Assembly (NCBI GenBank): GCA_963976765.1
Contig: CAXBME010000008.1
Coordinates: forward strand, 62,001-126,000
Source of the DNA: an uncultured Planctomycetaceae bacterium
GTDB taxonomy: Bacteria; Planctomycetota; Planctomycetia; Planctomycetales; Planctomycetaceae
Direction: 5' to 3'
Length of the DNA stretch: 64,000 nucleotides
Part shown: in pieces, positions 6,635-58,691 of the stretch
Layout: every line of letters begins with the position of its first letter
Position numbering within the stretch: the stretch's first letter is position 1
Position numbers and translations under genes: made by a program
The notes under the pieces: generated by a model
The model's database searches: none
Seen by the model: only the letters and a program-made list of their open reading frames with translations
What the model was told of the DNA's origin: nothing

Positions 6635-6661
6635 GCGGACCGTTCCCGGTCCGCCTGTTTT
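6635..6661 (+). terminator. Terminator/attenuator-like hairpin upstream of the giant gene
   Basis: Perfect 8-bp stem GCGGACCG-ttcc-CGGTCCGC followed by CTGTTTT, about 160 nt before the ATG at 6822. Confidence 0.45.
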
Positions 6662-6680
6662 GATATGCAGATGTCGTACG

Positions 6681-6722
6681 GCGATTTTGCCGTGATTTGA
6701 TAGCGATTTTACTGAGATTTGA
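6681..6722 (+). promoter_or_regulatory. Phased direct repeats, candidate transcription-factor operator
   Basis: GCGATTTTGCCGTGATTTGA (6681-6700) and GCGATTTTACTGAGATTTGA (6703-6722) are 17/20 identical. GATTT starts at 6683, 6694, 6705 and 6716, an exact 11-bp period. Confidence 0.45.
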
Positions 6723-6809
6723 ATGTTTGCGACTCGCTGTGTGCACGCAGCGGGCTGAATTCCATTTGAAGATCCATTTCATTTCGGTCGTTGCCTGCAG
6801 GCATCATCC

Positions 6810-6815
6810 GAGGAG
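6810..6815 (+). promoter_or_regulatory. Ribosome-binding site of the giant gene
   Basis: GAGGAG lies 6 nt upstream of ATG 6822. Confidence 0.8.
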
Positions 6816-6821
6816 CACTTC

Positions 6822-6974
6822 ATGTTTCTGACGCCGTGGATTCGCACTGTACAGAACCGTCTTTCGTGGTCTCGCTGGTTGCGAAAAAATCGCCGCCATC
6901 AAAAGCTGAGCACCAGCGCCGAAAGGCGAATGAACAAGCAGGCTGAATTGCTTGAGGCTCGTACCCTGCTGACG
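6822..6974 (+). other. Planctomycete extracellular-protein N-terminal motif (Planc_extracel / LEPR-XLL-like)
   Basis: An Arg/Lys-rich leader with no hydrophobic h-region ends in ELLEARTLLT (6945-6974), matching the E-x-L-E-x-R-x-L-L motif of planctomycete extracellular proteins. Confidence 0.8.
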
Positions 6975-9900
6975 TCCCCCGAGTTTGTTTCGGTGAGCCC
7001 GAACGTCGGGACGTTTCTGCAGGACGGTGATGTTCGAGACGAGATCCCCCAGGAGCTGTTGTTTCAGTTCACGCCGGGACAAACTCTCGACGCCGCATCG
7101 CTGGACGCGATCAACATTTATGCTGCCGGAGCTGATAATCAGTTCCGGTCGGCTTCGGCGTTGACCGACTTCGGCACGAACGGGGCTGTGTTGCTTCGAG
7201 TCGGAACTCGGCGGCTGGGAGAAAGCGAGAACGGATCGACACTGACGATCTCGACCGCCGCGACTGGGCTTGGAACCATCGTCACCGGAAGCACCGAGAC
7301 GAACGAGATCCAGGAGCTGTCGCTGCCGGCAACTTTCACAGGCGGCAATTTCACGCTGACTTTCAATGGTCAGACGACAGCCGCACTGAACTTCAACGCG
7401 ACCGCTGCTCAGATTCAGACGGCTCTCGGTAACTTGCCGGCGGTCACTCCTGGCGACCTGATTGTGCGGGGCGGACCTCTTAATACGGACCCGGTTTCCA
7501 TCGAGTTCGCGGGGGCCTTTGCGCGGCAGGATGTTTCGCAGATCACGGTCAACAGTGCCAATCTTCAGAACAACGAAGTTCAGACCGTCACCGTGTCGGG
7601 CGACCCGACAGGCGGCACGTTCCGACTGAGTTTTGACGACCCCGGCCTTGGCATTACGGGGACAAGCGCGGTCATCAATTACAACGCGAATGCGGCAGCC
7701 GTGCAGGCGGCAATCGTCAGCGGAATTCCGGCACTGGCGGGACAAATCTCTGTCACCGGAGGCGATCTGCCGGGCTTGCCTGTCTCGATTCAGTTCATTG
7801 GCGCAGCGGCTGATACCGACGTTTCCGCGTTCACAGTCGCGTCGAGCAATCTGACGGGGGGGACGTCGCCGCTGGTCAGTGTTGCGACAGTGGCTGATGG
7901 AGATCTCGATGCCGCAGTCACCACACTTGCTGATGGCACAACGGGATTCCTGAACATTCAACTGGATTCTTCCACGCCGACGACGGCGCAGAGTCTGATC
8001 AATCTTGCAGCCACCAATCCCCAGGTGAAGCAGCTGCTGCGTGTGGAACTTGTTTCGGGTGACGCGTCCACAAGCATTCTTGGCGCGAATCTGACGGCCA
8101 CACTGACGGGGGCCGGCGCCGCTTCGGGCAGCTCCAGCTTTAACTCGGGCACGAATCTCCAGGTTCAGTTCACGGCAAACTCAGCCGGACTGGCTGGCAA
8201 CGATATTCGAGTTCAATTCAATCGTCTCGACCTGAGTGCTGTCAGCAGAACCCCGAGAATCAGCGTCGTTGGCGACCTGATTCGAGTGACATTGAACGAT
8301 AACCCCGCAGCGGCCACCAGAGCGATTGATCTGGTCACCGCTCTGAACGGAAATGCGGCGGCCAGCAATCTGATCACTGCTTCGGTGGCGGTCGGTCTGG
8401 ACACGACATCGCTGGCAACGGTCGCTGATGGAAGCCTGATCCGACTGTCGGGTGCTGACCAGATTGTGAATCCCGGCTACCGGGCCATTGGTGACAAGAC
8501 TAACGAAGTTCAGTACCGGTTTGGTGATCAACTCGCCGACGACCTCTACCTGATCCAGGTTGCCGGCACTGGCCTCGAACGACTCACCAACACCGCTGGC
8601 GAAGCGCTCAACAATCTGGCTGACCACTTCCAGACGTTCCGCATCGACCTGGGTGGCGAAGTTCGCTCGATCGTGCCGCAACCGGTGCTGCGAGAGAAGA
8701 CGCTTACCATTGCCACCGGCACTGGAGCGAACCCAACCAACCTGCGAGACGGTGACACGATCACTGTTGATCCTGGCGTTTCGATATTCGCCCGCGCCGT
8801 GACTGATCTTGATTCTGGCGGCGCTGTCGTGGTCTCGTTTGACAGCGCCTCTCCGGGAACGGCCGGGAACGGCGTGCGTGTCGATGTGAGCACGGCAGAC
8901 CTGGGGACCACCTCGGCGGCGCCGACCGTCAGCGTCAGCGGTCGACGAGTCACCATCGTACTGAACTCGAACCCCACCCGACCGACAACAGCCGAAGATC
9001 TGGCAGATGCCGTCGCAGCGAATGCTTCCGCGCGTTCACTGATCGCTGTTGTCCTGAGCGGCGACGCATCGACGACCATCGGCACAACGCTGGGCGCGAC
9101 TCAAAACCTGACGCTGGCAGGCGGTCTGGATCTGCTGACCTTCGAAATCAACGACACAGGTGGGGGTGTCGCTGGAGTCCGAGGCGGCAACATTGCAGTC
9201 GATGTCAACCTGACAACGGCCACTCCAACAGCCGTCGCCGGAGCGATCGCCACAGCGATTAATACGGCAATCGCCGGTGCAACGAACGCTGACGTTCCAG
9301 ACATTACGGCATCGAACGGCGGTACTTCGACGGTCCGGGTTGTGGGCGATTCGCTGGACGTTTCGCTGAATTCGTCGTCGTTTACTTCAACGGCGATCAC
9401 TCGTGGCGAAGGCGGCCTGGTACAGCGACGGGACCGCGTTGTCGTCTACTTTAACGATGTCGACCTGGACGACACGGACGCCAGCAATCCTCGCTTCTAC
9501 CAGCTCATCAACACCGCCGGCACAGCGACTGCGATTGACGATTCTATCCTCATACCGACTTCGGTGACGTACGACCGTGCCAACGGAACCGCGGTCTTGA
9601 CCTTTAACTCTGGTAATCCGCTTCCGACAGCGACCTGGCGATTGCAGGTCGGCACGTCCGACGAAAGCGGAGACGACACGGGTTCGGCGCTGAGACTGGG
9701 GACATTGTTCGTCGGGTCTGGTTTCAACACTAACGGTTTCATCGGCGACAGTGCTGCAGCCGCTGCCGATGCTGACCTGTATCGATTCCGTTTGGGCGGC
9801 GCCGGTGGGGACGTGACGGTCATTGTAAACCCGACTGGTGGTCTGGACGGCGAAATTGAAATCCTCGACTCGACCGGTGCCAGTATCCTTGGGCCCATGT

Positions 9901-12900
9901 CGTCCGGAGCCGGAGCCAATCTGCAGGATACGCTGGCAGCCGGTGGCCTGGCTGCCGGGACATACTTCGTTCGGATCACCAGTAGCGGCGGAACGACGAC
10001 CGGCTCGTACAACCTCGATATCAGTACGACGGCAGCTTCGCCGACGGCGGGCGGCGACGACAACAGCTCGTACTTAACCGCAACGGACGTCGGAACGCTG
10101 GGGGCTGCTGGCGTCTCGCTGAGTTCGCAGATTGAAGCTCAGAATATGGTGGGCATCCCTCAGTTGCCGAATGACAGCTATCCGGGCCACCGCGACATCC
10201 CGGTCGAATCGCACGGTGGTGGCAGCGGTACCGGCACACAGACTGGCGCGACACCATCAACCTACTTCTACAACTTCCGGGACGATTACGGTTCGCTGTT
10301 TGGAATTCCTCAGCAGAATCAGATCACCGAAGGACAGAAAGAACTGGCGCGAGCCATCTTCGAAATTTTCAGTCGTCACACCGGCATCCAGTTCGTCGAA
10401 ACGACCGACAAGGGTACGTACATCGCGACGGGTGACGTTCGAGTTGCTGATCCGACACTGCCTCCTTCGGTGGCCGGGATTTCGACAGTCATTATCGGTG
10501 CGGCAGGTGGTGCCGGCAACGACGAGCAGTACGGTGGCGGATGGATGGGTGTCGCGCTGCACGAAATCGCGCACACGCTGGGGCTTGGCCACTCGGGCGA
10601 TCTGCACTCGTTCCAGGATGGTGGCGGGGCGAGTCCCGTTACTACCGAAACGATTGCCAGCGATTACGACCTCGATCATCTGCGAGCGCTGTATCCACCT
10701 TTCGCTACGGATATCGATCTCTATCGGTTTGAGCTGACAGAAGCGGGAACGGTCAATGCAGAGATCATGGCCGAACGCCTGACCGGGCAGACTCGTTTGC
10801 TCGACGCGACGCTGACGCTGTTCCGTGATCCGTTTGCCCGCGCCTCTTCAAACTTCGGCGGCAGCAGCGCGACCGTAGACTTCACGGCAGTCAACGCGGG
10901 AACATTCGGCAACGACATCACCATTACGCTGCAGAAGTCAGGAAGCCTGACCAACGGTGGCGTACCGAATATCTCAGTCAGCGGACACAACATCACCGTC
11001 ACATTGGATTCGGCCAATGGAACGACTGCCGATCAACTGATCGCTGCACTCGCTGCCCATCCGTTGGCGAACAAACTCGTCAATGCCACCCTGACTTCCG
11101 GTGCGGTCAGCGGAACGACCAACATCACTCCGACGGCTTCCGCCGGAAATGTGATCGGCCTCGGTGGTGGCAATCGTGAAGTCATCGCCCGCAACGACGA
11201 TTACTACAGCGACGACCCGTTCCTCAGTCAGGAACTGGAAGCCGGTGTGTACTACATCGGAGTGTCGGCCAAGGGGAACGAAGCGTACGACCCGACCATT
11301 TCGGATTCCGGGTACGGCGGCCTGTCCAGTGGCAATTACGACCTCAATATCTCGTTCTCACCTGCCGGAGCTGGCAGCAGTCTGGCTGACGCCGACGGAA
11401 CAGCCACCGCGTTCGACGGAAACTCCGACGGAACTCCTGGCGATGCTTTCAACTTCTGGTTTGAAACCGGGGCGACGGTCTTCGTCGATAAGGCCACCAC
11501 CGTGGCTCCTGCCGCTCAGACGGGATCTGTCGACGCTCCCTACAGCACCATTGAGGCGGGCGTTCTGCGAGCAGCCAGTCGGATTGTTATCCCGGCGAAC
11601 CCGACAGATCCTGAAACTGGTCTTCGTGATGGCATCTACGATGCTGGGGATGGATCAGGATTCATTGGCGGTGACTACTTCACCATCAGTGATGGCGTCA
11701 ATCAGCCATTGGTGTTCGAGTTTGACACTGACGCGATGGTAATCGGTTCCAACTTTCGAGTTGATATCGCCGGGTTGACAGATCGAGCAGACATTGCGAA
11801 TGCGCTAAGCGACGCGATTCATACACAGTTTCTTGCCGGCAGAACTTTGATCGATGCGACGGCAGACCCTGCAGGTTTTGTTGATCTCTCGAATGCTGTT
11901 TCGGTCGACGTCTCGAACACGCCGGGGCTCCTGACGGCAGCCAGCATCCTGAGAATTGTCGGAAACGGCGGAGCGGATGGTGATGTGCTCACTCCTGCCG
12001 ACACTCGCGCCTACCTGATCGGTCTCGATAATTCCAACTTGCCATTGCCTGACGGTCGTAACTTTGACGTCCCGCAGGGCGTGACTGCGATGATCGATCA
12101 TGGTGCTGTGCTGAAGCTTCAGAGTGCCAACATCGATGTCGGGTCTACTTCTTCGGGAGTCAACCGACAGGATGCCGCCCTGCAGGTGCTGGGAACGCCT
12201 GACAGCAATGTTTACTTCACCACATTCCGCGATGACTCGCTGGGTGGTGATTCGGACGGTGCGTCGGTTGGCGCCGTGTCCGGTCAATGGGGCGGGATCG
12301 TCTTCCGCACGGACTCCGACCAGAACGACACTGCACGCGGTGACGACGATGCCAACTTCGTCTTCCTCAACAATATTAACCAGGCAGATCTTCGGTACGG
12401 TGGCGGTCAGGTTTCGGTCAACTCGGTCGTCGATGTCTACACGCCGATTCACATCGAAGACGAACGTCCGACGATTTCGAACAGCACCATCAGTCACAGT
12501 GCCGCTGGAGCCATCTCGGCCGACCCGAACAGTTTCGATGATTCCAATGGTCGAATCGGCCCGGACATACAGGGTAACACGTTGATCAATAACTCGATCA
12601 ACGGTCTGTTTGTTCGAATTGCGACAACCACCGGCACGCCGATTGACAAGCTGGAGCGTCAGGCCCGCTTCGACGACACAGATATCACCTATGTGATTTC
12701 TGAAAACCTGCAACTGGTTGGAAACGCCGGTGGCTGGCTGATCGGCAACGAAGTGCAGGAACTGACGATGCTGGGAACAGCCACCAGCGGCCAGTTCACG
12801 CTGACTCTGCCGCCAGGCACGGGTACGACTCAAGCCGGGACTGCTTTGACGCAGGACGTCACCAACCCGGCAGCGACGTCGATTTTCGTGAATGACGCTT

Positions 12901-15900
12901 CTGTGTTTCCGCCAGTTGATGGCAGTGCCTCGACGATAGATTTCACAATTCAGATCGGGACCGAAATTCTCGGTGTCCGCAACATCGTTGGGAATCAGTT
13001 GACGGTTACTCGCGGGTTGTACGGAACCGCCCCGAATACCTACCCGCAGACCGTCACGGCGGTCAACCTGGCCCGAACAACGGTCGCGCTGAGCCACACT
13101 GCTACAGCTGCGGAAATTCAAGTTGCTCTGGAAAACCTGAACGGCATTGGCGTTGGCGGCGTGAATGTTACTGGCGGTCCGATCAATCAGGACAAAATCA
13201 CGATCGAATTCGTTCGTCAGAACGGCAGTGACCAAGTGCTGGAACTCGTCGTGGACAACGCAACGCACCCCGTTGGCACGACAGGCATGACCGACGGTCG
13301 AGTCGTCGTCGACACCATTACAGACGGCCCAGGACTGGGTGGCAATGAAGTCACCGCACGGCTGGGAGCTCGCTTGAAGGTCGATCCTGGCGTGGTGGTC
13401 AAATTAAGCGGTGCTCGCATCGAAGCGGAACGTGGCTCGGCTTATATCATCGCCGAAGGCACACCGGACAGTCCGGTTATCTTCACATCGCTCAATGACG
13501 ATCGTTACGGAGCCGGCAGCGGCACGTTTGACACCAGCAACAATGGTTTCAACACGATCGCGAACAACACCGCAAGTCCTGGTGATTGGGCCGGGATCCT
13601 GCTGAACCTGGGGACTCGCGGCCACTTCGAGCAGACGATCTTTGCTTACGGTGGTGGCACGGCGGTCGTCGAAGGTGGTGAAACCGGCGGATTCAACGTG
13701 CTCGGTATTCACGAAGCCGACGTGCGTGTGGCAAATTCGCTCTTCGAATTCAACGCCAACGGTACGGGCGGCACAGACGCAGATCGTAATAACCGCGAAA
13801 CCAACGATGCCGCGACGATTTTTGTTCGCGGAGCACAGCCGATTATCGTCAACAACGATTTTTCCAATAACCGCGGTTCTGTCATCAGCATTGATGCCAA
13901 CGCGATGAAAGAGATTGGCGTTGCTGATACCGGAGCGTCGACGCAACCCGCTAATGCTTACACCCAGTTTGATGCCAACCAGGGGCCGCTTGTTCGTCTG
14001 AACCGGATGGACGTGGATGGAACTCCTGGCAACGCTCTGCTGGGGATGGAGATTCGTCAGGGCGACCTGGACACAGCCACGATCTGGGACGACACCGATA
14101 TCGTCCACATTGTCCAGAGCGGCACAATCCGCAACAACTACACGCAGCACCTGTTTGGTGGTCTGAAGCTGGTCAGCGATACCAATGCCAGCCTTGTTGT
14201 GAAGATGGGAGCGAATGCCGGCTTCGAAATCGGCAATCCAGACAGTAATGGCGATGGTACGCCGGACGAAGGTCCGCTCGATATTGATGATCGAGTCGGG
14301 CCATCAATGCAGATCATTGGCCAGCCGGGTTTCCCCGTCATCATTACAGCGTTGACCGACGATTCAGTCGGCGCGGCTCTGGACACGGAAGGGTTCCCTC
14401 AGACCGACACGTCCGCCAACGGAAATACAACTCCGGTTGCCGGTTTCTGGGATGAAATCCTTATCGACAGATACTCGAACGACACCAACATGGCGGTGAT
14501 TTTCGAAGCCGAACCGCAGCTCACTGGTGGCGTCGACGAAAATGAAACCGTCACTCCGACCACTAATACCGCCGAGTTTCTGGGTGAACTGGCTCCCACG
14601 CAGGAAGGCGGTAACGAAGATCGTCGGGCTGGTTTCCAGATTCACGGGGTGATCTCTCCAGACGCCACCGACGACGTCGATGTTTACAGTTTCAACGCGG
14701 TCGCCGGAACTGAAGTCTGGCTGGATATCGACTACACAGATCCGCAGCTCGATACAGTGCTGGAGCTGTTAAATGCGAACGGGCAGATCATTGCCCGCTC
14801 ACAGGACAATTCGACACTGACGCCGTTCACCGCGACGCCGAACCCGCTGGAGAAGTTGTCCACGCTTGGTGGCGACTTCTACGCGACAACCACTCGCGAT
14901 GCCGGCATGCGAATCACGCTGCCTGGAACTCCGGGCACGACGCAGCCGTACTTCCTGCGGATTCGAAGTAATCCAGGTGCGGGCAATATTGCGGACCTGA
15001 GCGGCGGTCTCACCAGTGGCCGTTATCGAGCACAGATTCGACTGCAACAGGTCGACCAGTTCCCAGGCGTCGCCGTCACATTTGCGGATATCCGCTACGC
15101 GACCAACGGGATCCATGTTCGAGGCTTGCCTTACAACAGTCCGCTCACGGGGCAGACGAACGAAGATGGCACAAACGATGCCGCCAACAACACGACCGCT
15201 GGGGCGATCAATCTTGGCAACCTGTTGTTCTCTGAGGGTAACAGCTTCAGTGCCGGTGGTACGTTGACGGGTACGACGGACGTCGACTTCTACCGCTTCC
15301 AGATCGACTATCAGAAGATTCAGGAAATCGCCGGGCAAAGCGACGGCGGTAAAACCTGGGCAACGATTATCGACATCGACTGGGCTGATGGTCTGCCTCG
15401 TCCCGATACGACGATTGCCGTGTATCAGCAGAACGGACAGCTGGTTTACATCGGTCGCGAATCCAACGTGATTGATGACCAGGCCGCTCTGGGGCAGGGG
15501 CAGGATCTCGACGATTTGTCACGAGGCTCAGTCGGCCCGCTCGATCCGTTCCTTGGCACTGCGATGTTCGAGGAAGCCTCAGCGGCTGACAATTTCTACT
15601 ACCTGGCTGTCTTCAACAACCAGCTCCAGCCGCAGGCGCTGAATGCCAACGTGCTCAGCAGTTCTGGCAACACAACAGTTCGTCTCGAGCCAGTCAATTC
15701 GTTGACGCGAATCGCGGAAGACCACATTGGTTTCAACGGTTACACATCCAACGGCACTGTGGTCAGTCCCACGACGCCATCGTTGATTGATATTGGTTCG
15801 GCAATTGCGCTCAGTGGAAATATCGAATCGTTCACCATGAACGATCTCGTGCTGTTCGTCTCAGGGACCAATCAATTACGAGCCGTTAATGCGCTGACTG

Positions 15901-18900
15901 GTGCTCAACTGATCAACTATGGCAATCTTTCCGGCGGCAACAATTCGACGCAGGACATCGCTATTCGGTCAGACGGGGTGCTGTACGGCTATCAGGATAT
16001 TACCGGTCCCAATAATGCCGCGACACAGAACACTGTAGGGCGATTGGTTGGTCTTAATACGGGGACTGGTGCCGTTACATTGATCGGCAATGACGGGATT
16101 TCCGGTGAGAATCCTACGCCAGCCAGCCAGAGTCCAGCGAACACTGGTGCCGGCAATGACTTCGATGATATCACGGTTTCCAATAACGTTGGGGCTTTGA
16201 CTGTTGAGCGGTTTCTGCCAGGGGGAAGCACTACCCCGAGCTACACAGGTTGGTATGCCGTTAATGAAAACGGCACCACTGTCGCGGGAGGGGCGAGTGT
16301 TAATTCGAAGTTGTACCGTTCAAATCTCGACACAGGGGCTGTCGCGAACGATACGGGCGATAGAGGTTTTGGCGACATTCAATACAGCGATGTGACATAC
16401 GCCAGTGATACCGCCTCTCTCTCTTCGGGATTAGGGGCAGGGAATACCTCTGTCATTTATGTACAGGCCAAGGCTCCGGGAGAGGCAGGCAATGGTATCG
16501 TCCTGAATATGGCTCCTAACTTCGGAAACAACGCCAACATCAACGTGAGTGCAGGAGCGGGAACTGTCACGGTCAGTTTCGGTCGAAACGCATCAATTCA
16601 AAATATTGTCAATGCGATCAATCAGAATGCGGCAGCCAGCAGACTGATTACAGTCGCACTTGCTAATGGGCAGAATGGTGGCCGGACAACCGGCGACGGT
16701 ACGCAGGCCGGTCAGGGCGCCAGTGATGCCTTGTTGACAGGTGGTTCGGATGGAGCAATTGGACCATTGACCGGTAATGTCACCGGGCTGGCATTCAACA
16801 CGAGCATTCCGAACGACAGTGCTGCCAACCTGCTCTACGGCGTGACGAGTACCGGTGAGCTGATCTCGATAGACCGATTTAATAACGCTGATCTAAAGTC
16901 GGATGCCACTCTGATCGCCAACTTCCGGACGAACATCAGCACGAATGCGATTGTCGACTTTGTGGAGTTCAATCCGGATACGATCACTCGGCCAGCCAAT
17001 AGTGGCAGCTGGATCGCTGATGGGTTCCAGGCAGGTGATACGATTACAGTCACGGACTCACTTAACAACAACGGCAATACACGGACGATTGATACGGTCA
17101 CGGCGACGACAATCACGCTTGTTCCTACAGATATGGTGGTTGACGAAGCCAATGTGGCTGTGCAGATCACATCGTCTACCGGTGGTGTTGGTACCGTGCG
17201 GGTCAATTTTACGGATACCGGTGTCGACAGAATTACCCGAACCGACGGTGGAGACTTTGTCGCGGACGGGTTCGCAGTTGGCGAAACGCTCACAATTGCT
17301 GGTTCGACGAACAATAATGGTACGAACCAGGTGACCATTGGTTCGGTCACGGCTACAACCATTCTGCTGGTTAGCGGAGACACTCTCACGACAGAAAATG
17401 GTGTGGCTGGCGTGACGATTACATCGTCGGGAGGAGGCAATGCGACGCCAGGTTCCGTCAACTTTACGGACACCGGTGTCGACAGCATTTCTCGGACCGA
17501 TGGCGGTTCCTGGACGGCGGACGGCTTCCAGGTTGGTGATACGCTCACGGTGGCTGGCTCTGGCGCCAACGACGGAACCAACTTCTTGACAATTGGATCC
17601 CTCAACGCCACGACGATCTCACTCGTCCCTGGAGATGTTCTGGCGACTGAAGTTGGCGCTGGAGTTGTTATTACTTCAAACAATGGCGGGATCAGTCGAC
17701 TGCCCGTCACGTTTACGGAAGTACCCGGTCAGTTGGATGACCAGATTGTTCGGGTCGACGGCGGAAGCTGGCTGGCAGATGGTTTCATCGTTGGCCAGGC
17801 GATCAATGTGACTGGCTCAGGAGTGCCGGGTAATAACGCTCAGTTCACTATTGCGAGCGTGGACGCGACCACAATTACAGTCGCTGAAGCTGGTGTTCTT
17901 GCGCGGGATCCGGGCGCGAACGTGACTGTGTCCAGCGTGGCTGCGGCTTCGTCATTAACCCCGTCGGACGGAAATCCAATTAATGGATTCACCGCGCTGA
18001 CGTTAGGGCCACAGAATATCTATGGCGGTCTGTTTGCCAATACACTGTTCGCGTCCACCGACGATGGTCGTGTCGTGGCCTTTGAAATTGATGCCACTGC
18101 CCCGAACGGTGTCAGGTTAATCAATGCCTTCGGCGGGGTGGGCAGCGATAATGGACAGCAGACCATCGCTTCAACAGCGACGACTGGCACATTCCAAATC
18201 ACGTACGCCGAGCCAGTCAGTGGTGAATTGCTGGTCACACCGGAGCTCAACTTCAATGCGACGACGGCGCAAGTTCAGGCTGCATTGACCAACCTCGTCA
18301 CAACCGGGGGGCTGCGACCATTCCTTGCTACCGACATCACTGTCACGGCCTCAGCTACCGACCTCTCCGACGGCACGATTACTGTCGAATTTCAGGGGAT
18401 CTACACAGATAAAGCTGTTCCTGTCCTGGGCATCAGTACGGCGACTGCGACACCAATTAACGGAACGGTCACAGTTGCTCAGACGGACGCGCTTGGTAAT
18501 TCGACCATCGGTGGCGATGGAATTCGAGACCAGAACATCCAGGGTGGATTTGGAAATATCACCGGTCTGGCGTTTTCGAATGTCGACTACAACCTGTGGC
18601 ATCCGACAACGAACAGATCAACCAATGCCGGGCACGGGATCAATGCTGCATTTGATAACTCGCGAACGCCGTCGGCTGAGCCTCATGCAATCGCTGACGG
18701 TGCCGGGAACATCAGAACGCAGTCAGAGGCCCAGGGTGGGACGAGCCTGTACTTTGGAATTGAGCAGTACGTCGCCAATGGTCAGACTGATTATCTGAAC
18801 TACAGCGCGGCGAACGGGATGGACCGCACTCAATATGGAATTGTTGACAACGACACTCAGCGGGATTTGACCGCGAATACAACGATCGGCGACAACTACA

Positions 18901-21900
18901 ACACACCAGGGGGCGCATTCGGAAGTTTTACTACTAACAGCGTCGACCTTTCGGCATACTCATTCAATGATAAGCCGACGCTGTACTTCAATTACTTCCT
19001 GGATACAGAGGATGCCCAGGCCGGTCAGGGGCAGAATACGATGCGTGACAGCGCCCGTGTGTTTGTGACGACTGATGGCGGGCGAACTTACACGCAGATC
19101 GCAACCAATAATACGGTACTGGACGCGGAACTTCCGGAGTTTATCTCCCACAATGCTACGTACAATGGGTCAGCCGTTCAGGAATTGTTTGATACCGCAC
19201 AATGGCGGCAAGCCCGCATCGATCTCTCGCAGTTTGCCGGCGCGAAGACTGTTCAGTTTCGGTTCGATTTTTCAACAGCGGGCACAACAAATGGAGAGAA
19301 CCTTCCTGGTGATGCCTTCGGGAATTTGAACGGAAATGGCTCCGCAGCTCGTGCGCAGAATAATACCAACGAAGGCTTCTACATCGACGACATCATTGTG
19401 GGGTTCGCTGAACGCGGTGAACTGGTTACGAACGCTCCCAACGATACCGACTTTGACAATCTGTACTCGGGCGACCTTGGTGGGCGAGCAAATATTAATA
19501 ACCTGACGACGCCGCCGACCATTGTGGCGACTGGCGACTATCAGGTCGAAATTCGTACCGGGACAACGTATGCCGCACCGGCTGATCCTGCCGAGTCAGA
19601 TATCATCGTCTTCACGACGTTCGACACCAACGACCGCCTGATTCAGGATCTGACGACCAAGTTGCCGCCTATCACGCAGACGTTCGATATCGCGATTGAT
19701 TTTGATCCGTTTCCATTAACTTTTGCAGAACTGGACCCGATTAACGACACAGGTGGTACTCCGGTAAGCGTCGCGCCGTGGTTTGAGACAGCCGATGCCT
19801 TTGTGTCCGATCCTCGTAGTCTTCGTTCGGGTGCAGTCGATCCAGGCGAAACTTCGCGAGCTGTGCTGACGCAGGCAACCGGTGATGGAAATGTGACGTT
19901 CTTTGTGGAACTGGATTCCGGTGACACCGGCAATGCATTCCAGTTTCTGATTGACGGCGTGCCTCAGGAAATATTTATTTCTGGAATCAGTATTGGCACG
20001 ACACTTTTGGCAATCGGTACTACCAACCCACAGTTTGCGACGCTGTCTTTTCCGATCACTGCTGGTGATCATGTTTTAGAATGGCGTTTCACACGAGCTG
20101 GAAATGCCACCAGCTTCGGTGCGGATGCGGCGTACATTGACAACCTCGTGATCCCTCAGGATGTGACGTCCACGGGGCGACTTGGTGACCGGAACATCGT
20201 GCGGCCGCAAGGCATGGTGGTGCTGCAGGGCAACTTCATTTCGAATGTCAGTGGAACCGGCATTATTGTTGAAGCGGGAGATCGAGATACCGGCGGCGGG
20301 TTATTTGATACGGACTTCCCATATCCCGGTGCCGGTCGAAATACTCCGATTCAACAGGCCAATTTGACAACTGGAGCGTCGATCAAGAACAACGTTGTTT
20401 CTTTCTTTGGCGGAGCAGGTATTCGGTACAGTGGCGACGCCAATATTGGAGCTGTTCCTGACGCTGCCGTGCCGATGGGCAAAATTATCAACAACACGTT
20501 GTACGGCGGACTGACGCCATCAGGCACGGGTATTGTCGTGTCAAATAATGCCAGCCCGACGCTGGTTAACAATGTTATCGTCAACACAAACACGTCGATC
20601 AACATTGACGCGTCGTCTGGTGGTCAGGCTTCACGACCGGTGGTGCAGCGTACCCTGACGCAGAATGCTGGTGGCTCGGTGAACAGTGGAGTGACGTTCT
20701 CGAATACCGTCACTGTTCCGTTGTCGACAACACTCTTCGTTGATCCGGCCAGTAATAACTTCTATCCGGATGGTGGTTCGGTGGCTGTACCGAACCCGAT
20801 TATTGACAGCTCATTGAATTCGGTGGTTGAACGGGATCCTGCTTACAAGTCCGTACGTCAGTCGCTGGGGTTGCCGCAGCAGGACTTCTTTGCTCCGGAT
20901 CTCGACGTCTATGGTCAGGAACGAGTTGACGACACCAGCACGACGAACGCGACAGGAATCGGGTCGAATATCTTCAAAGACATCGGGGCCATCGAGCGGG
21001 CTGACTTTGCTGGTCCGACGGTTCGCTTGAGCACGCCGCAGGACAACGGCAGTCTGGATTCCGATCCGGATCTGACCGAAATTTCCATCAACAATCCGGC
21101 ATTGCTGACTCAGTTTGTGATTTCGATCACGGATCCAGGAACACCGCCGAATCCAGGTGTTGGGGTGAACGATACGGTGTCCGGGCTGGTGGATGGTTCG
21201 GCGTTTGTGCTGACTCAGACTGATGCAAATGGTGTACGAGTTCTTCGGTCGGGCATCGACTACATTTACACGTACAATTCCAATACGAACGAAGCGATTT
21301 TCCGATCGGTGACGGTCTTCCCGAGCGAAGCGGCCTACAACATCACAGTTGCGGATCCAACACAACTGGTGGACATCGCCGGGAATCAGGTTCAGCCAAA
21401 CCGAACGGATGGCTCTGTCCAGTTCGACATTCTGGTCACTGAAGGGGCGAACGATCCGCCGACGATTGCCGTGCCAGGCCCGCAGGCAACGATCGAGAAT
21501 ACGAACGGCAACGGCTCGTCCATTACGTTCTCACAGGCCGCCGGCAACGCCATCACGATCGACGATCCAGACGCCTTCATTGCCGGAAACATTGTCCAGC
21601 TGACGCTGTCGGGCGATAACGGAACCATCACGCTGCCTGCCGGCTTCGGCAGTCTGGCCACGTTGAACATCGGAACGGGGACCAACGACGTTCAGGTGAG
21701 TCTGACAGGAACGATCGACAACCTGAATCAGATTCTTGACGGCCTGGTCTTCACACCGACGGCTGATGTCAATACGGAAGAGGGTGGGCCGCCGCCGACG
21801 GTGACGCTCAACGTTTCCGTCAACGATCTGGGTAACTTCAGCGCACAGAATCCGCTGGTTCCGCAGATCACCAACGACAGCGTTGACATTACGGTGACGG

Positions 21901-42900: not shown

Positions 42901-45900
42901 GTGGTGCGGATTCCGACACGGTGACGTTGAATTCTGGTGCTTCCGTAGCCGGCTCGATCTCGACAGCTGCCGGCAACGACAGGTTGCAGCTTGGCAATGG
43001 TGCTGACATTACTGGTAGTTTTGCCGCCGGTGCCGGAATCGACGCTTTGAGCTTTTCCGGTTACACAACCGCTCGTGATGTTGCGATAACGGCTGTTAAC
43101 GCGACTGACGGATTCGACGGAACTGAAGTTTCTATTGGCGGTGGGTTTACGTCGGTGAACAGCCTTACGGGAAGTGCCAGCGGCAGCGATGCACTGCAGG
43201 GGCTGGCGACGACCGCTGCCGTCTGGACCATCGCTTCGAATGGTAGCTACAACGCTGGCGGTGAAGTTCTGGCGATCAGCTCGTTCGAGGACTTGACTGG
43301 CAGCAGTGCCGACGACCGTTTCCAGTTTGGAAGCTTCGGTATTGGAGCGGTTCCTCAAGTTACCGTTTCAGCCGGTGCGGGTAATGACCAGCTTGTTGCA
43401 AACGTTAGTGGCTCAGACTTCCTCGTTACCGCAGCCGATGCTGGAACCGTGACCGTACGCAACTCAGCGGCGATTCCGGCGACAGCGGTCAGCCAGTTCT
43501 TCAGTGTCGAATCACTGGTGGGGAACTCGGGCAACGATCGATTTGAATTCCTGAATTCGGGGTCGTTGACAGGTTCGATCGACGGAAACGTCGGCAACGA
43601 CACACTGGTTGGCGACTCCGACGGGAATATCTTCACCGTCACGTCAGAAGACGCCGGAACGCTGGCAGGAAAAGTTGCCGGTGGTTTTGTTGAAATTGAG
43701 AATCTGGCGGGCGGGCTGGCCTCTGACACGTTCAACGTCAATGCCGACCTGAATGGTGGCATCAGTGGATTTGCCGGCGAGGACGTTGTTGTGGTTGCGG
43801 ACGGCGTCACGATCGCGGGGGCAATTGATACAGGGTCGGCAGCCGACCAGTTGACCTTCGGAAATAATACTGTCATTGGCGGAGCGGTCACCGGAGGTGC
43901 TGGTGCTGATACTCTGACGATTCAGGGAGCAATTACAGCGACTATCGGCGGTGGAACTGGCAACGATCTTTTCGTTCTTGGAACAGCTGCAAGTGTTACA
44001 GGAACTCTCGACGGTGGGGCTGGTGTTGACGAAATCCTGGCGTCCAGTAACGCGACGACTTTTGTCATCAACGCTGTTGATTCCGGTGCTGTGACGGGGC
44101 AGGTTGACGCCTTTATCAATGTCGAGAATCTGACTGGCGGTGCCGGTAACGACGTCTTCCAGTTCGAAACGGGCGGTCGCCTGACGGCTGGAGTCGTCAA
44201 TGGTGGTGCCGGTACTGACACGCTGGACGGTGACCTGAACTCCAATAACTTTGTTATCTCCGGTACCGATTCGGGAACCTATGACTCCGACCAGGCAACG
44301 GGTGGTGAGGTTGTTTTCCTCAATGTCGAATCCCTCGACGGACGTAGCGGAAACGATCGGTTCCGATTCACAAGCCTTGGAGTTCTGACTGACGTGCTTC
44401 TGGGTGGTGCCGGTCTGGATGAACTGGTTGCGTCGAACAACGGGGACGTGTTCCACGTTACTGCGACGAATGCTGGTACGCTTTACGATGGACCAGGTCT
44501 TACGAATCCACGAACCGTCAATGGGTTCCTGAGCGTCGAAAATCTGACTGGCGGCGATGGCGAAGACACATTCGATATTGATGCCGACGTCTTTGGCAAT
44601 CTGATCGGCGGCGGCGGAAACGACACGTTTACAGTCGATGGGAATGTTGGGGGAGATTTGGACGGCGGAGCCGGCACTAACACGCTGACTCTTGGGGCCG
44701 GTGCATCGATCGCCGGAAACGTTTCGAATGTCAACGTCACTCAGACTGTAAACGCTCCGGAAGATGGCTCACCGGACGTCATTGAACTTCGTCTGAACGG
44801 CAGTACCGGAGCTTTGGAAGCCGTCGTTAACGGAGTTGTCAGCTCGTTCTTCGTTCCGACGAATCTTGACTTGACGATTCAGGTGCCTGCTACGACTGAC
44901 GACGTATTCCTGACAATTAACAACGCCAACGGTGGCCTGATCGATGCGGATATCGTGTTCTCAGGTGGGGCGGGTGATGACGATCTGAGTGTTATCGGCA
45001 GCGGCTCTCCTGCCGAGAATGCTGTTTACACCCCAAGCAGTTCTCTGAATGCAGCTGGGTTGGTCGAGATTGAGAACTTCTCGACCGGTATCACACAAAC
45101 GATCACATTTGAAGATGCTGGTCCGGTTGATTTTGCCAATGTGGCACGGCTGACGTTCGTGACACCGGCTTCAAATGACGTGGTCGATCTTTCCGCCGGG
45201 CTGGATGCTCACTTCAACACTCAGAACGCATTGGTCATTTCCGGGCTCAGCGGTGGGACCGCTTTCGCAGCGGCTCACATCCGCAGCACGATCAGCGTGG
45301 CAGTTGACCTGGCGACCAATGATGGGGTTTCGCCAAATGATGTCGTGAACATTAACGATGGCGCGCTGCAGGCCAACTCTGATCTGGCTGAACTGAGCGT
45401 CAGCACGGGGAACGGAACGGACACCTTTAACGTGTCTGAAGATGATTACCTTCTGCCGGGCGCTGCTGCAGCGACCGTGTCGACCTCGACTCTTCCAGAG
45501 TTGACAATCACAGATGTCACCACACGTGAAGGTGATCCGATCACCTTTGAAACCGGGACGAACATCACTGGTGTCGGCGGATTCTTTCCTCAGGATATGG
45601 TTGAATTCGACTTCGATGGCGACAATGACATTGACCTGGCAACCATCGATCTGGCCAACGGATTCGTGACGATTCTTGTTAATACTGGGAATGGCAACTT
45701 TGTCGCATCGACCTCGGGCGGGATCAGTACGACCAGACCGACAAACCTTGCAGCGGGCGATTTCGACAACGACGGACGCGATGATCTGGCGATTTTCGAT
45801 GACGTCTTCGACACGGTTGAGATCCTGAGAAGTTTCGCTTTCACTCGGGATAATCCGTTCTTCATCCAGACCAGTTTCCAGACGATCACCTACCCCACGA

Positions 45901-48900
45901 CCGGATTCGCTCCTGCGTTCTCGGGAGTGCAGGCCGTCGACATTGATAACGACAACGATATTGATCTTGTGTTGTCGAACGACGCTGGATCCGGGTTTGG
46001 CGGTGGTCACATCACTGTGATTCGAAACAGTCTTGAGCTCGGGATTGGATTTGGGGGGGCGGTCTTCCAGACCAACGGTGAAGCCTTCAGTACTCTCTCG
46101 ACCAGAGCCCAGGACCTGGTGCTAGATGATTTTGATGGGGATGGCTCTCCGGATGTTGTTGTGATTTCCGATGTGAACCGGACCGGCTTCACATTCATGG
46201 CGAATTCTGGAGTCGGGACTTTCGGGTCCAGCTTGTTCACGCCTTCGGTAGCTGGCTTGAATGCTGTGACATCTGGTGACGTCAATGGTGATGGTCGGCC
46301 AGATGTGATTCTGCTGAGCGACAGTTCAATCCTTGTTTTCGAAAATCTTGGGGGAACCGTTCCAGCGTTCGCGGCCGGGGCTGTGATTGCAACGGGTGGT
46401 TTTGCCGGCGTGGATGTCGTGACCGGAGACTTCAATGACGACGGAAACCTCGATATTGCAGCCACTGACTCGAATAACAGCGAAGACGTCATTGTGTCGT
46501 TCGGAAATGGCGCTGGCGCATTCGGATCAGCTCAGTTGTTTGCGACAGGGCTGGTCACCAGTTTCCAGGGAGCGGCTCTGGTCACTGCTGACTTCAATAA
46601 CGATGGGCTGGTTGATCTCGCTCAATACAGCGACTCTACCGGAAATGGGGCTGTGAGTATTTTGACAAATACTTCTGCGGCTACGGCACTGCTTACCGTT
46701 TCGCTGTCGTCTGTTGCGACTCAACCCGTGTCGTTCAACTACTCGCTGTCAGATGGACTTGCGACGGGGTTAAACGACTTTAATAGCAGTGTCTCCAATC
46801 CAGTGACGATTCCAGTCGGGCAGTCGTCCGTCACCATCGCCATACCAATCTCAGGTGACCTGAATGTGGAGTCGGACGAGAACTTCTTTGTGAATCTATC
46901 GAGTCCGGTGAATGCCGTGATCGCCGATGGTCAAGGGCAGGTCACCATTCAGGACGACGATGGTTTTGCTGGTGCCGGGCCTCGAATCAATATCGGGGCA
47001 GCGTTCACATTCACAGAAGGAGACTCGGGAGTCACGACAGTGTCTGTGCCTCTGACGCTGAGCGCCGCTCAGGCTACAGATGTGACGGTGGATTTTGTGA
47101 CTCGTGCTGTCACGGCTCAAGCCGGTGTTGACTACATTGATACGGCAGGAACCGTGACGTTTACTGCGGGGAGCACCACCGCCAACATCCTGATTGACAT
47201 CGTCGGTGACCTGGTGAACGAAGGTGCTGAAACGTTCCTGATCAACCTGCTCAATTCAACGGATGTGGTTCTCGCAAACACTCAGTCGTTGGTCACGATT
47301 GACGTCAGTGATTCTAACGTCCCGGTCTTTAATAACGGTTTGCGCCTCGACGGCGGTATCGGCACCGACCGAATCATTGTGACAGCTGATGTTGGGCTGA
47401 TTGAGCTTGATGCGACGACAGGTGCAGAGCAGATCAGACTGGGGACTGTTGGCGTTCCAGGTTCACTTGGTCGTGCTAACCTGCTCAATCTTGCCGGAGA
47501 GGACGTGACTGTCCTTGGGGGAGCGGCTGACAACATTATTGATCTGAGTCTGTGGAGTAACGGTGCCCGAGCGACTGTGGACGGTCGTGGTGGCGACGAC
47601 ACATTTGTCGGATTGGATGTCAGCAGCGATTGGACAATCACCGGAACAAATGCGGGGCAGGTCGGCGACTTCACATTCCTTGACGTCGAAAATCTGGTCG
47701 GCGGTGCTGCCGACGATGACTTCATCTTTAATGGCGGATTTGTCACCGGGTCCGTCAATGGAGGCGCGGGAGGGATTAACACGCTGACGGTGGGTAATAC
47801 CGAAAACGCCTGGACATTCGAGCGGATTGCCGGCGGTAGCGTTCGGTTGGGCCCGATTGTGACCGATCCATTGCTGAACTTTGACAATTTGCAACTGGTC
47901 AATGGCGGCACAAACGTCGATACGTTCACCTTTGCCGGTGGCTCAATTGCCAGCCTCGCAGGTGGAACGGGTGAAGATGTGGTAACCGGCGACAACCTCG
48001 CGAATACATGGCGTGTTCGAGACGTCAACGGTGACTCACTGACGGTTGATGAAGGTACCTTGACGTCTGCGTTGGGAATTACAGTGTTCTCCGGCATCGA
48101 GAATCTGGTCGGGGGTAATTTGGTTGACACATTTGTGTACGACCGCGACTCACGAATTTCCAGAACGATTGACGGGGGTGCCGGTGCGGCGAACATTCTG
48201 GACTTGAGTGGTTACGTCACCTCTCTCACGACGACTTTGACCAGCATTGGAAGCACCACCGGTTTTGCGGGTACTACACAGGGAATGTTCAAGCCGGTTG
48301 GTGACACGTTCGACAATATAACAGCCATCAACTTCAGTACGCAGAACGCAACGATTGGTGACAACCTGATCGGTTTGAACTCGACGGCTCAGTGGAACTT
48401 TGGGGCATCCACTTACACGACTGCCGGGCGAACTCTGAACTTCACTCTGGGAGCTACTGATGATGTGACCGGCGGAAGTTCGACTGATACTTTCAGTTTT
48501 GTGGGTGCAGCAGCCTCAGCAATCCGAAATGTCAACGGAGCCGGCGGTGCGGATACGATTACTGGTAATAATGTTGCGACGAGCTGGGCAATCAGTGGAA
48601 GTAATTCAGGTAGCTTCCAGCCGGGAATTTCTGCGATCGGCGGTTTCAGTAACATTGAGAATGTTGTCGGTGGCAGCGCAGTCGATACATTCACCTTTAC
48701 AAACAGCGGGCGACTCGATGGCACCATTGATGGTGGAGCCGGGATGGACTTTATCGTCGGTGATGCCGACGGTGTTCAGATTACTGTTACGGCTGGGCTG
48801 AATGATTCCGGTGTGATCCTCGAACAGGATGGCGCGACGGTTAAAGTGGTCAATGGGTTCTCAAGTGTCGAGAATCTTACAGGTGCCGGAGCGAGCGACG

Positions 48901-54900: not shown

Positions 54901-57900
54901 ACGGTGGTGCCGGAGCTGACCGACTCGTGCTGGCTGATCAGCAAATCTTGACGGGTAGTTACGACGGTGGAGAAGGATTCGACACGATTGACCTGTCGGC
55001 TTACACAACATCCACGACGTTTACGGCGACAGACCACGGCACCAACAACGGCTTTATGCTGACTTCGACGGGAATCACCGGAACTGCCGACAACGTTGAC
55101 ACTGTTATCGGTGGGTCGGCTGTGGATCAGATTGTCGGTTTGAATCAGCAGTCTTCCTGGTCGCTCAGCACGATTGACGACACTCTGGACCAGTACTTCA
55201 CGCAGTTCACTGATCCAGGGACGGGGCAGGAGTTTGGCCGAACGCTGTTTGCTACCGGCATTGAGACACGAAACGGCGGCAGTGATGTAGACACCTTCAC
55301 ATTGCAGATGGACCGTCTGGTGGCGGGCGTGACTCACACGGTTAATGGGAACGGCGGAAACGATGTTTACCTGCTTGAGTTCAATGCGGGGACTTCGTTC
55401 AGTGGTACATCCAACCTTGTGATTAACGGTGGTGATCCAGGGGCCGACATCGACAATCTGGATACCTTGCAAATCTTCGTTGACAAGCTTGGCGAGATCG
55501 CTCGGTCGATTGGCGTGACTTACGATTCAGCAGCCAGTGGCGACGTCAGTGTTACCGGCCTCGGCGGTGCGTCGGCTCTGGATATCAACACGATTGAGAC
55601 GCTTGAGATCATCGGTGACTCAGCGAACGACGATGACGTCACTGTCACCACGACGGCAGGGGCCGATATGGTGACGGTGGTGCCGGCTGCCAACGGTGCT
55701 CAGGTCTTCCTTGGCGGGACCAGTGCTTTGCCGGGAGTTGCTGGCGGTTCGACCGGACCGGATATCACCATCAGCGGTGTGACCAACGTGGCTGGTGTCT
55801 CGGTGAACGGCGCTGCTGGCAGCGACACGTTGATTTACGACGGGTCACCAACGGTGACTCCAAGCGGCCCAGGGGCCGGCACGCTGACTTCAGCCGGACT
55901 GGCCGATGTCGTTTACAGCGGGTTCGAGACAGTCGACGCTACAGGGGTTCTGAGCTTCACGATCGGTGCGACAGTCGCCGCTAACGATGGAACGGCTGAT
56001 TCGTATAACGTTTCGATCGAGTCGGGACTGCTCGAAGTCAACGTCAACGGAAGCGTTGTGCTGCAACAGGATGTTGCGACGATTGACCAGCTTGTGATTC
56101 AAGGATCGAACGACGACGACACGCTGACGGTGGATTACTCAAACGGTAGCCCGGTTCCAGTTGGCGGGTTGACCTTTAACGGTGGCGGCCAGACTACGGC
56201 AGCCGGCGACGCTCTGGTTGTCATTGGAGCTGGGATCGGATCAGGCAGCAGCGGTACCTACACTCCAAGTGCCACAACAAATGGCGACGGTGTTGTGTCG
56301 ATCGATGGCTCAACGATCACGTTCACGGGACTTGAGCCGGTAACCGTTTCTCAGATTACGACGTTCGCCTTCGTAACTCCGAATGCGGTTGACGCAATCG
56401 TCATTGACAGTCCAGCTGCTGGCCAGAACCGAGTCAGCGGGACCAGCGGTGGTGTGACCTTCGAATCGTTGATCTTCAGCAATATCGCCAACTTTACGCT
56501 GGACGCTGCAACCAACGATGTCGATTCGGCGTCGGGCGACAGCATCACCTTTACGTCAGACCTGCTTGCTGCTGGTCTGGCGTCGATGTCGGTCAACGGC
56601 GGGCTCGGCAGTGACACTATTGATGCTTCGGCAGTCACTTCGCTCGGCGTTTCGCTCAACGGCGGAAGCGGTGACGACACTCTGGTGACAGGTGGCGGCA
56701 ACGATTCAATCGACGGCGGTGCCGGGACTGACACTGTTCGTCAAACCGCTAATGGCACCCAGACGTTGACCGCCGATACGCTGCTGACTGGTAACGGGAC
56801 AGACACGCTGTCCGGGATCGAACGAGCCGATTTGATCGGTGGTACGGGGGCCGACCTGATCTCTGTCGCCGGATTTACGGGGCAGGCAACACTCAGCGGT
56901 CTGGGGGGCGATGACACACTGACGGGCGGTGCCGGCAATGATTCGCTCGACGGCGGATCAGGCAGCGACACGGTCCTGGATGTGGGGGCTGCAGGGTACG
57001 TTCTAACGACTTCGCAGTTGACCGGTTCCGGGACCGACAGTCTGACCAGCATCGAAAACGCCAATCTGACGGGCGATGCTTCGGCTAACACGATTAATGC
57101 ATCAGGCTTTGCAGGAACGGCCACGACTCTCAGTGGTGGAGCGGGTAACGACACGATTACCGGCTCGTCCGGTCAGGACAGCATCGAAGGCGGCGACGAC
57201 GACGATTTGCTTTCGGGAGCCGCTGGAAATGACACCATCGGCGGAGGGGCGGGTAACGATCTGCTGCTCGGTGGAAGCGGCAACGACATGCTGACTGGCG
57301 ATGCTGGTGATGACACTGTCGACGGTGGGTCAGGTAGCGACCAGATGAACGGCGAAGGCGGCACAGATGTGGTTCAGGCATCGGGTAGTCTGAACTACAC
57401 CGCAACGGACTCACAGATTTCCAATGGAACCGACATCGACACTTACTTTGAGTTTGAATTCCTGTCGATCGTCGGTGACTCAGCTGCAAACAACATCGAC
57501 GCCAGTGCGGTCACGATTCCGACGATGCTGGATGGCGGATTTGGAAACGACACCATCACCGGCGGGGCAGGTAACGACACGATCTTTGGTAATCAGGGCA
57601 TGGATTCAATTAACGGTGGAGCCGGAGACGACAACATCGACGGCGGTGCCGACAACGATACCCTGGTGGGTGGAGCAGGAACGGACACGCTGAGTGTCAC
57701 TGCAAATACCACGCTGACGATCGGAGCGAATCAGACGACCGGCAACGGCACCGACACCTTCAGCGAATTCGAGCAGGCGATTCTGACGGGCGGCGTTGGC
57801 AATAACCGGCTCGACGCTTCCGGAGCCACATTCAACGTGACGTTGCAGGGACTTAGTGGCGACGACACGTTGCTCGGTGGAGCCGGCGACGATTCGCTCG

Positions 57901-58691: not shown

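Follow-up and report, generated by a model that had tools for sequence, protein, structure and literature searches.

A 17,289-aa planctomycete protein with a conserved head, a predicted RTX-like beta-roll stalk and a candidate ABC-less export route

Introduction

A 64,000-nt stretch of planctomycete DNA (hereafter the window) contains one reading frame of 51.9 kb, which raises the question of whether a frame of this length is a genuine gene and, if so, how its product would leave the cell and what it might do outside. In the accessible parts of earlier reports, Planctomycetota are described as enriched in predicted surface proteins of very large size that carry domains such as cadherin and HemolysinCabind, and genes for at least 10,000 aa are called frequent (PMC5177795, PMC11573180, bioRxiv 10.1101/2023.11.21.568195, PMC12673574). 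The maximum given in the accessible text of Kohn 2016 (PMC5177795) is 36,239 bp, compared with 51.9 kb here; size alone is no record, because an Omnitrophota survey, going by its available text, covers proteins of more than 30,000 aa. Neither a conserved head family, nor a beta-roll stalk with exchangeable inserts, nor an export route is defined in the same portions of the planctomycetal reports. Giant genes of planctomycetes have long been tallied, and the present case supplies testable handles: a head family whose 4-8k-aa members occur in complete genomes, one candidate for the exporter and two for sorting motifs, and a set of natural metzincin variants that runs from intact to dead and includes a Met-to-Gln change at the turn. 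A beta-roll that tolerates whole-domain insertions would also be of interest as a display scaffold.

Results

The 51.9-kb frame is conserved in a second species

The giant ORF occupies 6822-58691 on the forward strand and translates, with one stop, into 17,289 aa (1,730,286 Da, or 1.73 MDa), which bears out the first-pass annotation of a single intact 51.9-kb ORF for a protein of about 1.7 MDa. The protein contains no Cys, is rich in Gly, Thr, Ala and Asp (61% G/T/D/N/S/A) and has its hydropathy peak, 1.73 over a 19-aa span, at an internal position. Taking up 0.6% of the genome, the frame is the longest ORF of the source genome (G000), an 8.57-Mb assembly of 95 contigs that is scored as 100% complete and is free of any N; DNA of the ORF is also present in two marine metagenome runs. 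The ATG is preceded by an RBS (GAGGAG, 6810-6815), from which it is separated by 6 nt. The RBS lies within a proximal upstream region, a putative promoter/5' leader (6597-6821, forward strand), that is 86-94% identical to the corresponding DNA of a second genome of the same genus (G003), compared with about 70% for five other intergenic pieces. This region is single copy in the genome and shows nothing unusual in its folding (z -1.4), and an Rfam scan returned zero families anywhere in the window, the region included. A hairpin near 6210-6233 is likewise conserved.

G003 encodes a colinear orthologue of 18,968 aa with the same flanking genes, the first 10 and last 10 residues of the two proteins being identical. 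In 300-aa tiles, identity is mostly 51-86% over aa 1-7,800 and 63-86% from aa 13,500 to the end, and the middle of the protein is rearranged. Across ten colinear blocks dN is 0.10-0.23, and dN/dS is 0.025-0.125 in eight of them, dS being saturated in the other two. This comparison indicates that the ORF is under purifying selection along its whole length and, since the syntenic orthologue keeps the frame with dN/dS far below 1, that it is neither a chance frame nor an assembly artefact. The misassembly or frameshifts that the first-pass annotation had considered are therefore not borne out, given an independent orthologue, synteny and low dN/dS.

The sole assembly risk in the ORF is a near-identical 1.1-kb internal repeat that the earlier annotation had overlooked, with copies at 29673-30776 and 33177-34280 on the forward strand (99.5% identity over 1,105 nt, and 2 nt apart in the core). 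The copies are spaced by 3,504 nt, in frame, and a collapsed or mis-resolved repeat would therefore still give an open frame, of about 16,100 aa. Contigs of the two marine runs, which possibly derive from the source sample itself, cover the unique DNA that separates the copies, with no joints listed, and none of them bridges the entire repeat stretch. In run X1, one contig near-exact to the repeat unit has a depth of 7.0, compared with about 4.5 elsewhere, and part of copy 2 lacks a contig, a pattern expected of a collapsed repeat. The knuckle units of the stalk (see below) that adjoin the two copies are 51% identical, as against 99.5% for the repeat, and the identity of the latter thus points to recent intragenic conversion.

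A conserved head, a predicted beta-roll stalk with inserts, and an RTX tail

All features of the protein described below lie on the forward strand. Among the modules that the first-pass annotation had listed, PPC, Cadherin, FG-GAP_3, Calx-beta, HemolysinCabind and one Beta_helix score over the Pfam cut-offs; M10 (E 1e-4), VWA (E 1e-3) and a MAM-like jelly-roll (E 6e-5) were recovered below cut-off only, and a second jelly-roll (aa ~4290-4450) gave no meaningful match. Missing from that list was most of the protein, aa 5566-16590, which consists of a Pfam-silent RTX-like repeat and for the most part stays unannotated in Pfam and NCBIfam scans. The AF2 models described below cover 546 of the 17,289 residues.

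The conserved head (aa 52-4870; 6975-21431) has a landmark order that is kept across homologues, namely n-domains, M10, beta-helix 1, beta-helix 2, MAM-like unit and Ig-like end, and lineage-specific accessory units are inserted into it. Two accessory units at 7299-7871 are like phage tail-protein add-on domains (PHROGs major tail protein, E 1.8e-14; tail sheath, E 5e-11). A PPC domain follows at 9714-10031 (PF04151, 31.1 bits, over cut-off), and aa ~1292-1500 and 2590-2945 also look PPC-like (E 2e-4); the metzincin domain lies at 10224-10697. Two beta-helix-like regions (aa ~1600-1960 and 2170-2560; 11619-14501) are highly conserved, with 44-77% identity in 44 relatives; they give weak Beta_helix matches only, and sequence and profile searches found neither a PDB relative nor an enzyme relative for them. 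Four tandem small beta-barrel-like units, placed by motif positions, occupy 16944-17936 (PHROGs head protein, E 1.5e-11), and two more of this kind, located in the same way, sit within the stalk. Beyond them are the MAM-like jelly-roll (18579-19421; PF20773, E 6e-5, below cut-off) and a right-handed beta-helix 3 (20199-21011; PF13229, 26.0 bits against a cut-off of 25.9), which is matched in 29 of 35 family members. In the ESM Atlas, aa 2961-3360 had no match of 0.9 or more. The accessory units at 7299-7871 and 16944-17936 both resemble phage tail/head protein families. A T9SS sorting domain (TIGR04183, 23.9 bits against 23) was rejected, as the match sits within the PPC domain at aa ~1000.

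The head is joined to the stalk by a neck of about five Ig/cadherin-like units (aa 4871-5565; 21432-23516; PF00028, 40.6 bits; Cadherin_4, E 2e-4) whose boundaries were set by eye. The stalk (aa 5566-16590; 23517-56591) is built of a repeat of about 70 aa together with a knuckle unit of about 250 aa, and contains 72 GGxGxD motifs. An HMM of the ~70-aa repeat made from both orthologues matches 93 times in this protein and 96 times in G003; five shuffles of the stalk gave zero matches. The knuckle occurs in seven copies here and eight in G003; six of those in the giant protein fall within the stalk span, the last being at aa ~16390-16600. An AF2 model of aa 13900-14209, for which the input comprised 48 paralogous segments, one of them overlapping the target, is all-beta with a pLDDT of 86.8. 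In fold comparison it comes closest to RTX beta-roll blocks (Z 10.7-11.2, with a high rmsd of 5.4-8.8 A), followed by the RTX region of MpIBP (Z 7.8), and the S-layer protein RsaA ranks in the middle (Z 6.7). The model thus suggests that the stalk is an RTX-like beta-roll of Ca2+-binding type. ESM Atlas neighbours of the stalk, which are unnamed or HemolysinCabind clusters, have low recognition value. The repeat is widespread, being found in 1,625 cluster representatives; among the best 150 of these, regex rules class 27 as leader-bearing and 31 as TPS-like, and Pfam scans of eight representatives gave TPS on one and CHAT on two. Since TPS-like features and leaders both occur among stalk-repeat proteins, the repeat is not tied to one export route.

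Several modules interrupt the stalk. A VWA domain at 26694-27311 (PF00092, E 1e-3) retains the MIDAS residues (DASGS..T..D) by sequence, has no PDB sequence relative in its region and is also present in G003; in both proteins it appears by eye to break a stalk repeat between 'WTI' and the next strand. Two further inserts, at 40344-42071 and 45549-47321, each consist of FG-GAP repeats and two Calx-beta units over the Pfam cut-offs, the FG-GAP repeats of the first presumably forming a propeller. G003 keeps the VWA domain; it further holds what looks by eye like an additional VWA-like unit, a single FG-GAP cluster and, at aa ~11,700-12,700, Sortilin/BNR repeats that enclose a second zinc-peptidase motif with a Met after it. 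Calx-beta was not found in the G003 orthologue over the 27 tiles searched (aa 4,401-16,440 and 18,321 to the end). Judged from these sequences, stalk modules are exchanged between species, and because the inserts differ between the two proteins, the stalk acts like a scaffold whose passengers vary.

The chain continues with a classical RTX nonapeptide tail (56592-58631), HemolysinCabind matches being confined to the C-terminal ~700 aa. With PF00353 scores of 201 and 164 bits, the giant protein has the repeats by which RTX proteins are defined in the available part of PMC3034196, a group exported by ABC-type T1SS, mostly from the same locus. NCBIfam RTX-toxin and serralysin matches span the nonapeptide repeats only and are far under cut-off; for this reason we do not file the protein as a toxin.

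The metzincin domain appears to have lost its zinc motif repeatedly

Is the head catalytic, as the first-pass annotation had proposed from a Zn-peptidase motif? The HEXXHXXGXXH motif lies at aa 1247-1257 (HEIAHTLGLGH, 10560-10592). A profile search against the PDB matched MMP-12 and serralysin (E 5e-6 to 2e-5), Pfam M10 scores 22.6 bits on the giant protein, under its cut-off of 24, and an AF2 model of the region (pLDDT 75.8) returned in Foldseek only MMPs or karilysin among the matches listed. Profile, model and fold search agree, and the predicted fold is that of an MMP/serralysin-type metzincin. All three His and the Glu of the zinc motif, which an active enzyme would require, are intact in G000 and G003. 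However, the position of the Met-turn residue (third His +8 by alignment), which is Met in MMP-12, is Gln1265 in the giant protein; according to the accessible part of PMC11674741, this Met is conserved and forms the hydrophobic base of the zinc site.

We aligned the window with 85 of 89 other loci, leaving out two loci as duplicates, a third because of a stop and a fourth, anchorless, whose motif is intact. In the resulting 86 rows (alignment A1), whose relatives were gathered by similarity and are not an unbiased sample, HEXXHXXGXXH is kept in 30, the window included, and lost in 56. Read by eye, the Met-turn residue of the 30 motif-intact rows is Met in 15, Gln in 13 and Ser and Leu in one each. 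A FastTree tree implies at least 8 parsimony changes in the zinc motif, best read as repeated losses, a count that is approximate because the underlying alignment holds the motif columns and some supports are low. The metzincin fold and the zinc ligands of the proposed catalytic head thus stand, but its catalytic part is doubtful because the Met-turn residue is Gln and the zinc motif is gone in 56 of 85 relatives. Catalysis by this domain is possible, and the comparison of relatives argues that it is not the domain's conserved role. The giant protein therefore resembles the M10 metzincins (MMPs, serralysins, karilysin) in fold and HEXXHXXGXXH, and is unlike them in its Met-turn Gln and its setting within a giant chain, two-thirds of the sampled relatives being without zinc ligands. 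A PGHR..E.H stretch before the metzincin (aa ~1120-1135, about 10180-10225) is conserved across relatives and modelled with low confidence, and may represent a pro-segment.

The head defines a family with a patchy distribution

A profile of the peptidase region matched 20 of 401 Planctomycetota genomes, each at least 90% complete. Carriers fall into three families of one class, with 11 of 40 genomes in the family of the source genome, 7/8 in a second and 1/2 in a third. The source genome aside, 23 of 24 open frames of the head family measure 4,200-8,396 aa, and one 1,291 aa. Named relatives of the peptidase region, taken from the best 80 of 121, are all Planctomycetota, mostly Pirellulaceae and Planctomycetaceae, and the two closest share 81% and 73% identity. 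In 23 homologous ORFs, several of them truncated where a contig or the fetched sequence ended, the landmarks found keep one order, and these comparisons suggest that the head defines a protein family of its own. The tails of the homologues vary by eye, being Calx-beta/cadherin-like, FN3-like, dockerin-like or short RTX, and among the 23 only G003 shares the long stalk repeat with the source genome. Two homologues end, again by eye, in a hydrophobic stretch and an Arg run, which would fit a C-terminus that lies close to the cell. Six of seven same-genus genomes gave no match to the head, a result that does not amount to absence because these assemblies are in 460-920 contigs. NCBI names on head fragments are generic, and some database homologues are shorter, many of those being labelled partial. 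In the literature searched, outside which most subscription papers lie, we found no publication on the head family. In two genomes (G394, contig C32, and G370, C273), head-family genes stand in tandem pairs, one gene having two zinc motifs and the other lacking them.

Leader, C-terminal motif and candidate export route

The N-terminal 51 residues (6822-6974) form a basic leader with 23.5% K+R that ends in LEARTLL (aa 44-50) and lacks a hydrophobic core, its maximal 12-aa hydropathy being 0.83. In its LE.R.LL after a basic N-terminal stretch the giant protein is like the LEPR-XLL/Planc_extracel proteins (NF012209, PF07595), but its leader scores in neither model: aa 1-80 gave no match at E<=1, and the protein is absent from the genome-wide matches. 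One head homologue bears PF07595. By a regex rule, 46 proteins of the source genome carry an LE.R.LL-type leader. The C-terminal end (58632-58691) contains an acidic motif, ID..F, and then a Leu-rich end, and is common to other leader-bearing proteins: a C-terminal [IVL]D..F occurs in 16 of 41 complete leader proteins of the source genome compared with 41 of 2,560 other ORFs, and in other genomes, on which the motif, defined after inspecting G000, was likewise counted, in 9/32 leader proteins versus 10/759 others. The source genome also has 41 ORFs with at least 4 RTX motifs, which mostly bear the LE.R.LL leader, and five further leader-type or partial ORFs of more than 6,000 aa (11,824; 7,721; 7,692; 6,448; 6,280).

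The giant gene stands alone among housekeeping genes, with no transporter within the window. We searched for T1SS with HlyB and HlyD models (TIGR01846, TIGR01843), and these stayed under cut-off in the 100%-complete source genome. LapG (PF06035) had no match there, and a control search finds Caulobacter LapG. An operon for an ABC transporter, HlyD_3 and OEP on another contig (C14:189124-194805), below the HlyB cut-off, is a rival exporter.

The genome further encodes an ABC-less module of two short SecA_DEAD proteins, M50-HlyD, HlyD and GAF-HlyD, and in two places one of its genes, once SecA_DEAD and once M50-HlyD, lies directly upstream of a leader-bearing RTX gene. In five genomes (G026, G449, G036, G422, G426), which represent 2 genera of family f3 and were picked after seeing coordinates, a head-family gene lies ~10 kb upstream of a complete export operon on the same strand; this stretch also holds other leader genes and, in G026, a BBP7 beta-barrel gene. 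The linkage is thus found in 5/9 examined genomes of f3, the 4 others showing none; it is lacking in the source genome, and in four genomes of the latter's family no leader gene lies beside the export operon. Leader genes were found near SecA_DEAD in 4/20 windows, near M50-HlyD in 1/20 and in 2/40 arbitrary control windows, so that M50-HlyD windows show no excess. The module is present in 80/81 genomes of the class, and its co-occurrence with the head family therefore says nothing. The gene neighbourhoods lend modest support to this module as the best export candidate for the giant protein. In its available text, Kamneva et al. 2015 (PMC4452313) describe a secondary SecA_DEAD/T1SS-related locus that is ABC-less and name no cargo; our source genome is alike in encoding SecA_DEAD, M50-HlyD, HlyD and GAF-HlyD proteins, and leader-bearing giants as cargo are what we infer from the neighbourhoods here.

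Discussion

A secreted fibrillar adhesin is the favoured reading

On balance, and with real reservations, we think it likely that the giant protein is a secreted, probably cell-surface-displayed fibrillar adhesin or tether. It would be synthesised as a single unfolded polypeptide and leave the cell without the help of a Sec-type signal, probably through the SecA_DEAD/M50-HlyD/GAF-HlyD module, which would recognise the basic LE.R.LL leader. Outside the cell, seawater Ca2+ would make the GGxGxD repeats fold up as an extended beta-roll rod, and a straight stalk would measure about 0.25-0.3 micrometre (estimated from 4.8 A per coil of ~20 residues), keeping the conserved ~4,800-aa head at a distance from the cell. 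The VWA, FG-GAP and Calx-beta modules that interrupt this rod, and that are exchanged between species, may serve as extra binding sites. The head would mainly bind, its metzincin domain being at most a weak or specialised protease, and the task of the whole would be attachment to particles, matrix or other cells. Composition, absence of Cys and low hydropathy are extracellular-type traits and all counted for a surface fibre. Of the very long surface fibre that the first-pass annotation had envisaged, there remain a long acidic Gly/Asp-rich protein, an N-terminal head and ligand-binding-type modules on a stalk of predicted Ca2+-binding type, whereas the catalytic nature of the head is weakened. 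Because no anchor is identifiable in its sequence, the protein may also be released.

A more specific proposal, which we offer tentatively and would not yet back, is that the protein is cargo of an ABC-less system reading the LE.R.LL leader, perhaps together with ID..F as a sorting signal, and that the chain is exported head first. The product would then be an RTX fibre of reverse polarity with a beta-roll display scaffold, swapped passengers and a metzincin that is either a Gln-turn enzyme or becoming a pseudoenzyme receptor, and chains of 1.7-1.9 MDa would leave the cell through an ABC-less secretion system.

How far does the analogy with LapA and SiiE drawn at first pass extend? In LapA/MpIBP-type RTX adhesins the extender consists of tandem Ig-like domains, and a LapG-type periplasmic protease acts on an N-terminal retention module. 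With the RTX adhesins LapA, MpIBP and SiiE the giant protein shares C-terminal nonapeptide repeats, an expected Ca2+-dependent folding, megadalton size and VWA/Calx-beta/cadherin-type modules. It differs in that its extender is, as far as the modelled block indicates, an RTX-like beta-roll, with an Ig/cadherin-like neck of only about 700 aa; in its basic N-terminal leader and the N-terminal position of the conserved head; and in having no LapG, no HlyB/HlyD over cut-off and no transporter in the locus. The analogy thus holds for the RTX tail, the Ca2+-type stalk and the modules, and fails for the Ig array and the export machinery. By analogy, the giant protein may work like an RTX adhesin, yet we do not file it as LapA-type because both LapA-type tests, LapG and an Ig extender, fail. 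A different complex, involving cohesin-dockerin and a peptidase, is proposed in the accessible part of PMC6461901.

Other explanations

An active head could instead be held out like a foraging arm, its metzincin and beta-helical glycan-acting domains digesting particle protein or polysaccharide while PPC, MAM and VWA bind the substrate. We consider this unlikely, although the intact HEXXHXXGXXH within an MMP fold, the flanking PPC domains, the strong conservation of the beta-helix regions, and the second zinc motif gained in the G003 stalk and present in some homologues with two motifs would all suit it. The Met-turn Gln and the repeated loss of the motif while the domain persists weigh against an active protease, and beta-helices for which neither sequence nor profile yields an enzyme relative weigh against a glycan-acting role. 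Prey capture, another suggestion of the first pass, is rejected since lytic and toxin domains were not found in Pfam and NCBIfam scans, which matched no lytic or toxin family beyond the RTX repeats.

The adhesin reading must also be set against one in which the protein is a structural protomer that builds up the stalk, holdfast or crateriform fibres of planctomycetes, structures for none of which we know of an established composition. Size and a rod-like stalk are compatible with such a component, and giant genes are proposed as structural in the available text of PMC5177795. The head, however, is patchy (11/40 in its own family, 20/401 in the phylum), the long stalk was seen in no homologue read other than those of G000 and G003, 45 giant genes are present in a species that lacks stalks according to the accessible part of its report, and a monomer of an estimated 0.3-0.4 micrometre must polymerise to attain stalk length. 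The stalk or holdfast component suggested at first pass is thus unsupported, and we regard it as improbable.

We rate as quite improbable that the chain is processed as a polyprotein or set free as a matrix protein, with its own metzincin or the M50 protease separating head and stalk pieces, which then act apart or form a surface layer. The want of a recognisable anchor, the mid-ranking match to the S-layer protein RsaA (Z 6.7) and the shorter database homologues are in keeping with it, but many of these short homologues are labelled partial, and two species keep frames of 17-19k codons despite saturated silent sites, which favours covalent linkage. That the ORF is an assembly artefact or unexpressed relic, to which the 1.1-kb near-identical repeat and the stretch spanned by no read or contig would point, is scarcely credible in view of the independent orthologue, synteny, dN/dS far below 1 and the conserved upstream region.

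Neighbouring genes

Three other genes of the window, all outside the giant ORF, contain repeats or domain combinations of their own. At 2-2293 on the forward strand lies the C-terminal part of an LRR and Laminin_G_3 protein that measures 2,005 aa in G003, and at 2824-5127 on the reverse strand, upstream of rnpA, a 767-aa fusion of SMP-30/gluconolactonase and FG-GAP repeats. Downstream of the giant ORF, 58944-59561 (reverse strand) encodes a 205-aa Lys/Ala-rich protein of 30-aa tandem repeats, without a Pfam match, which we take to be histone-H1-like by composition; similar repeats are present in G003.
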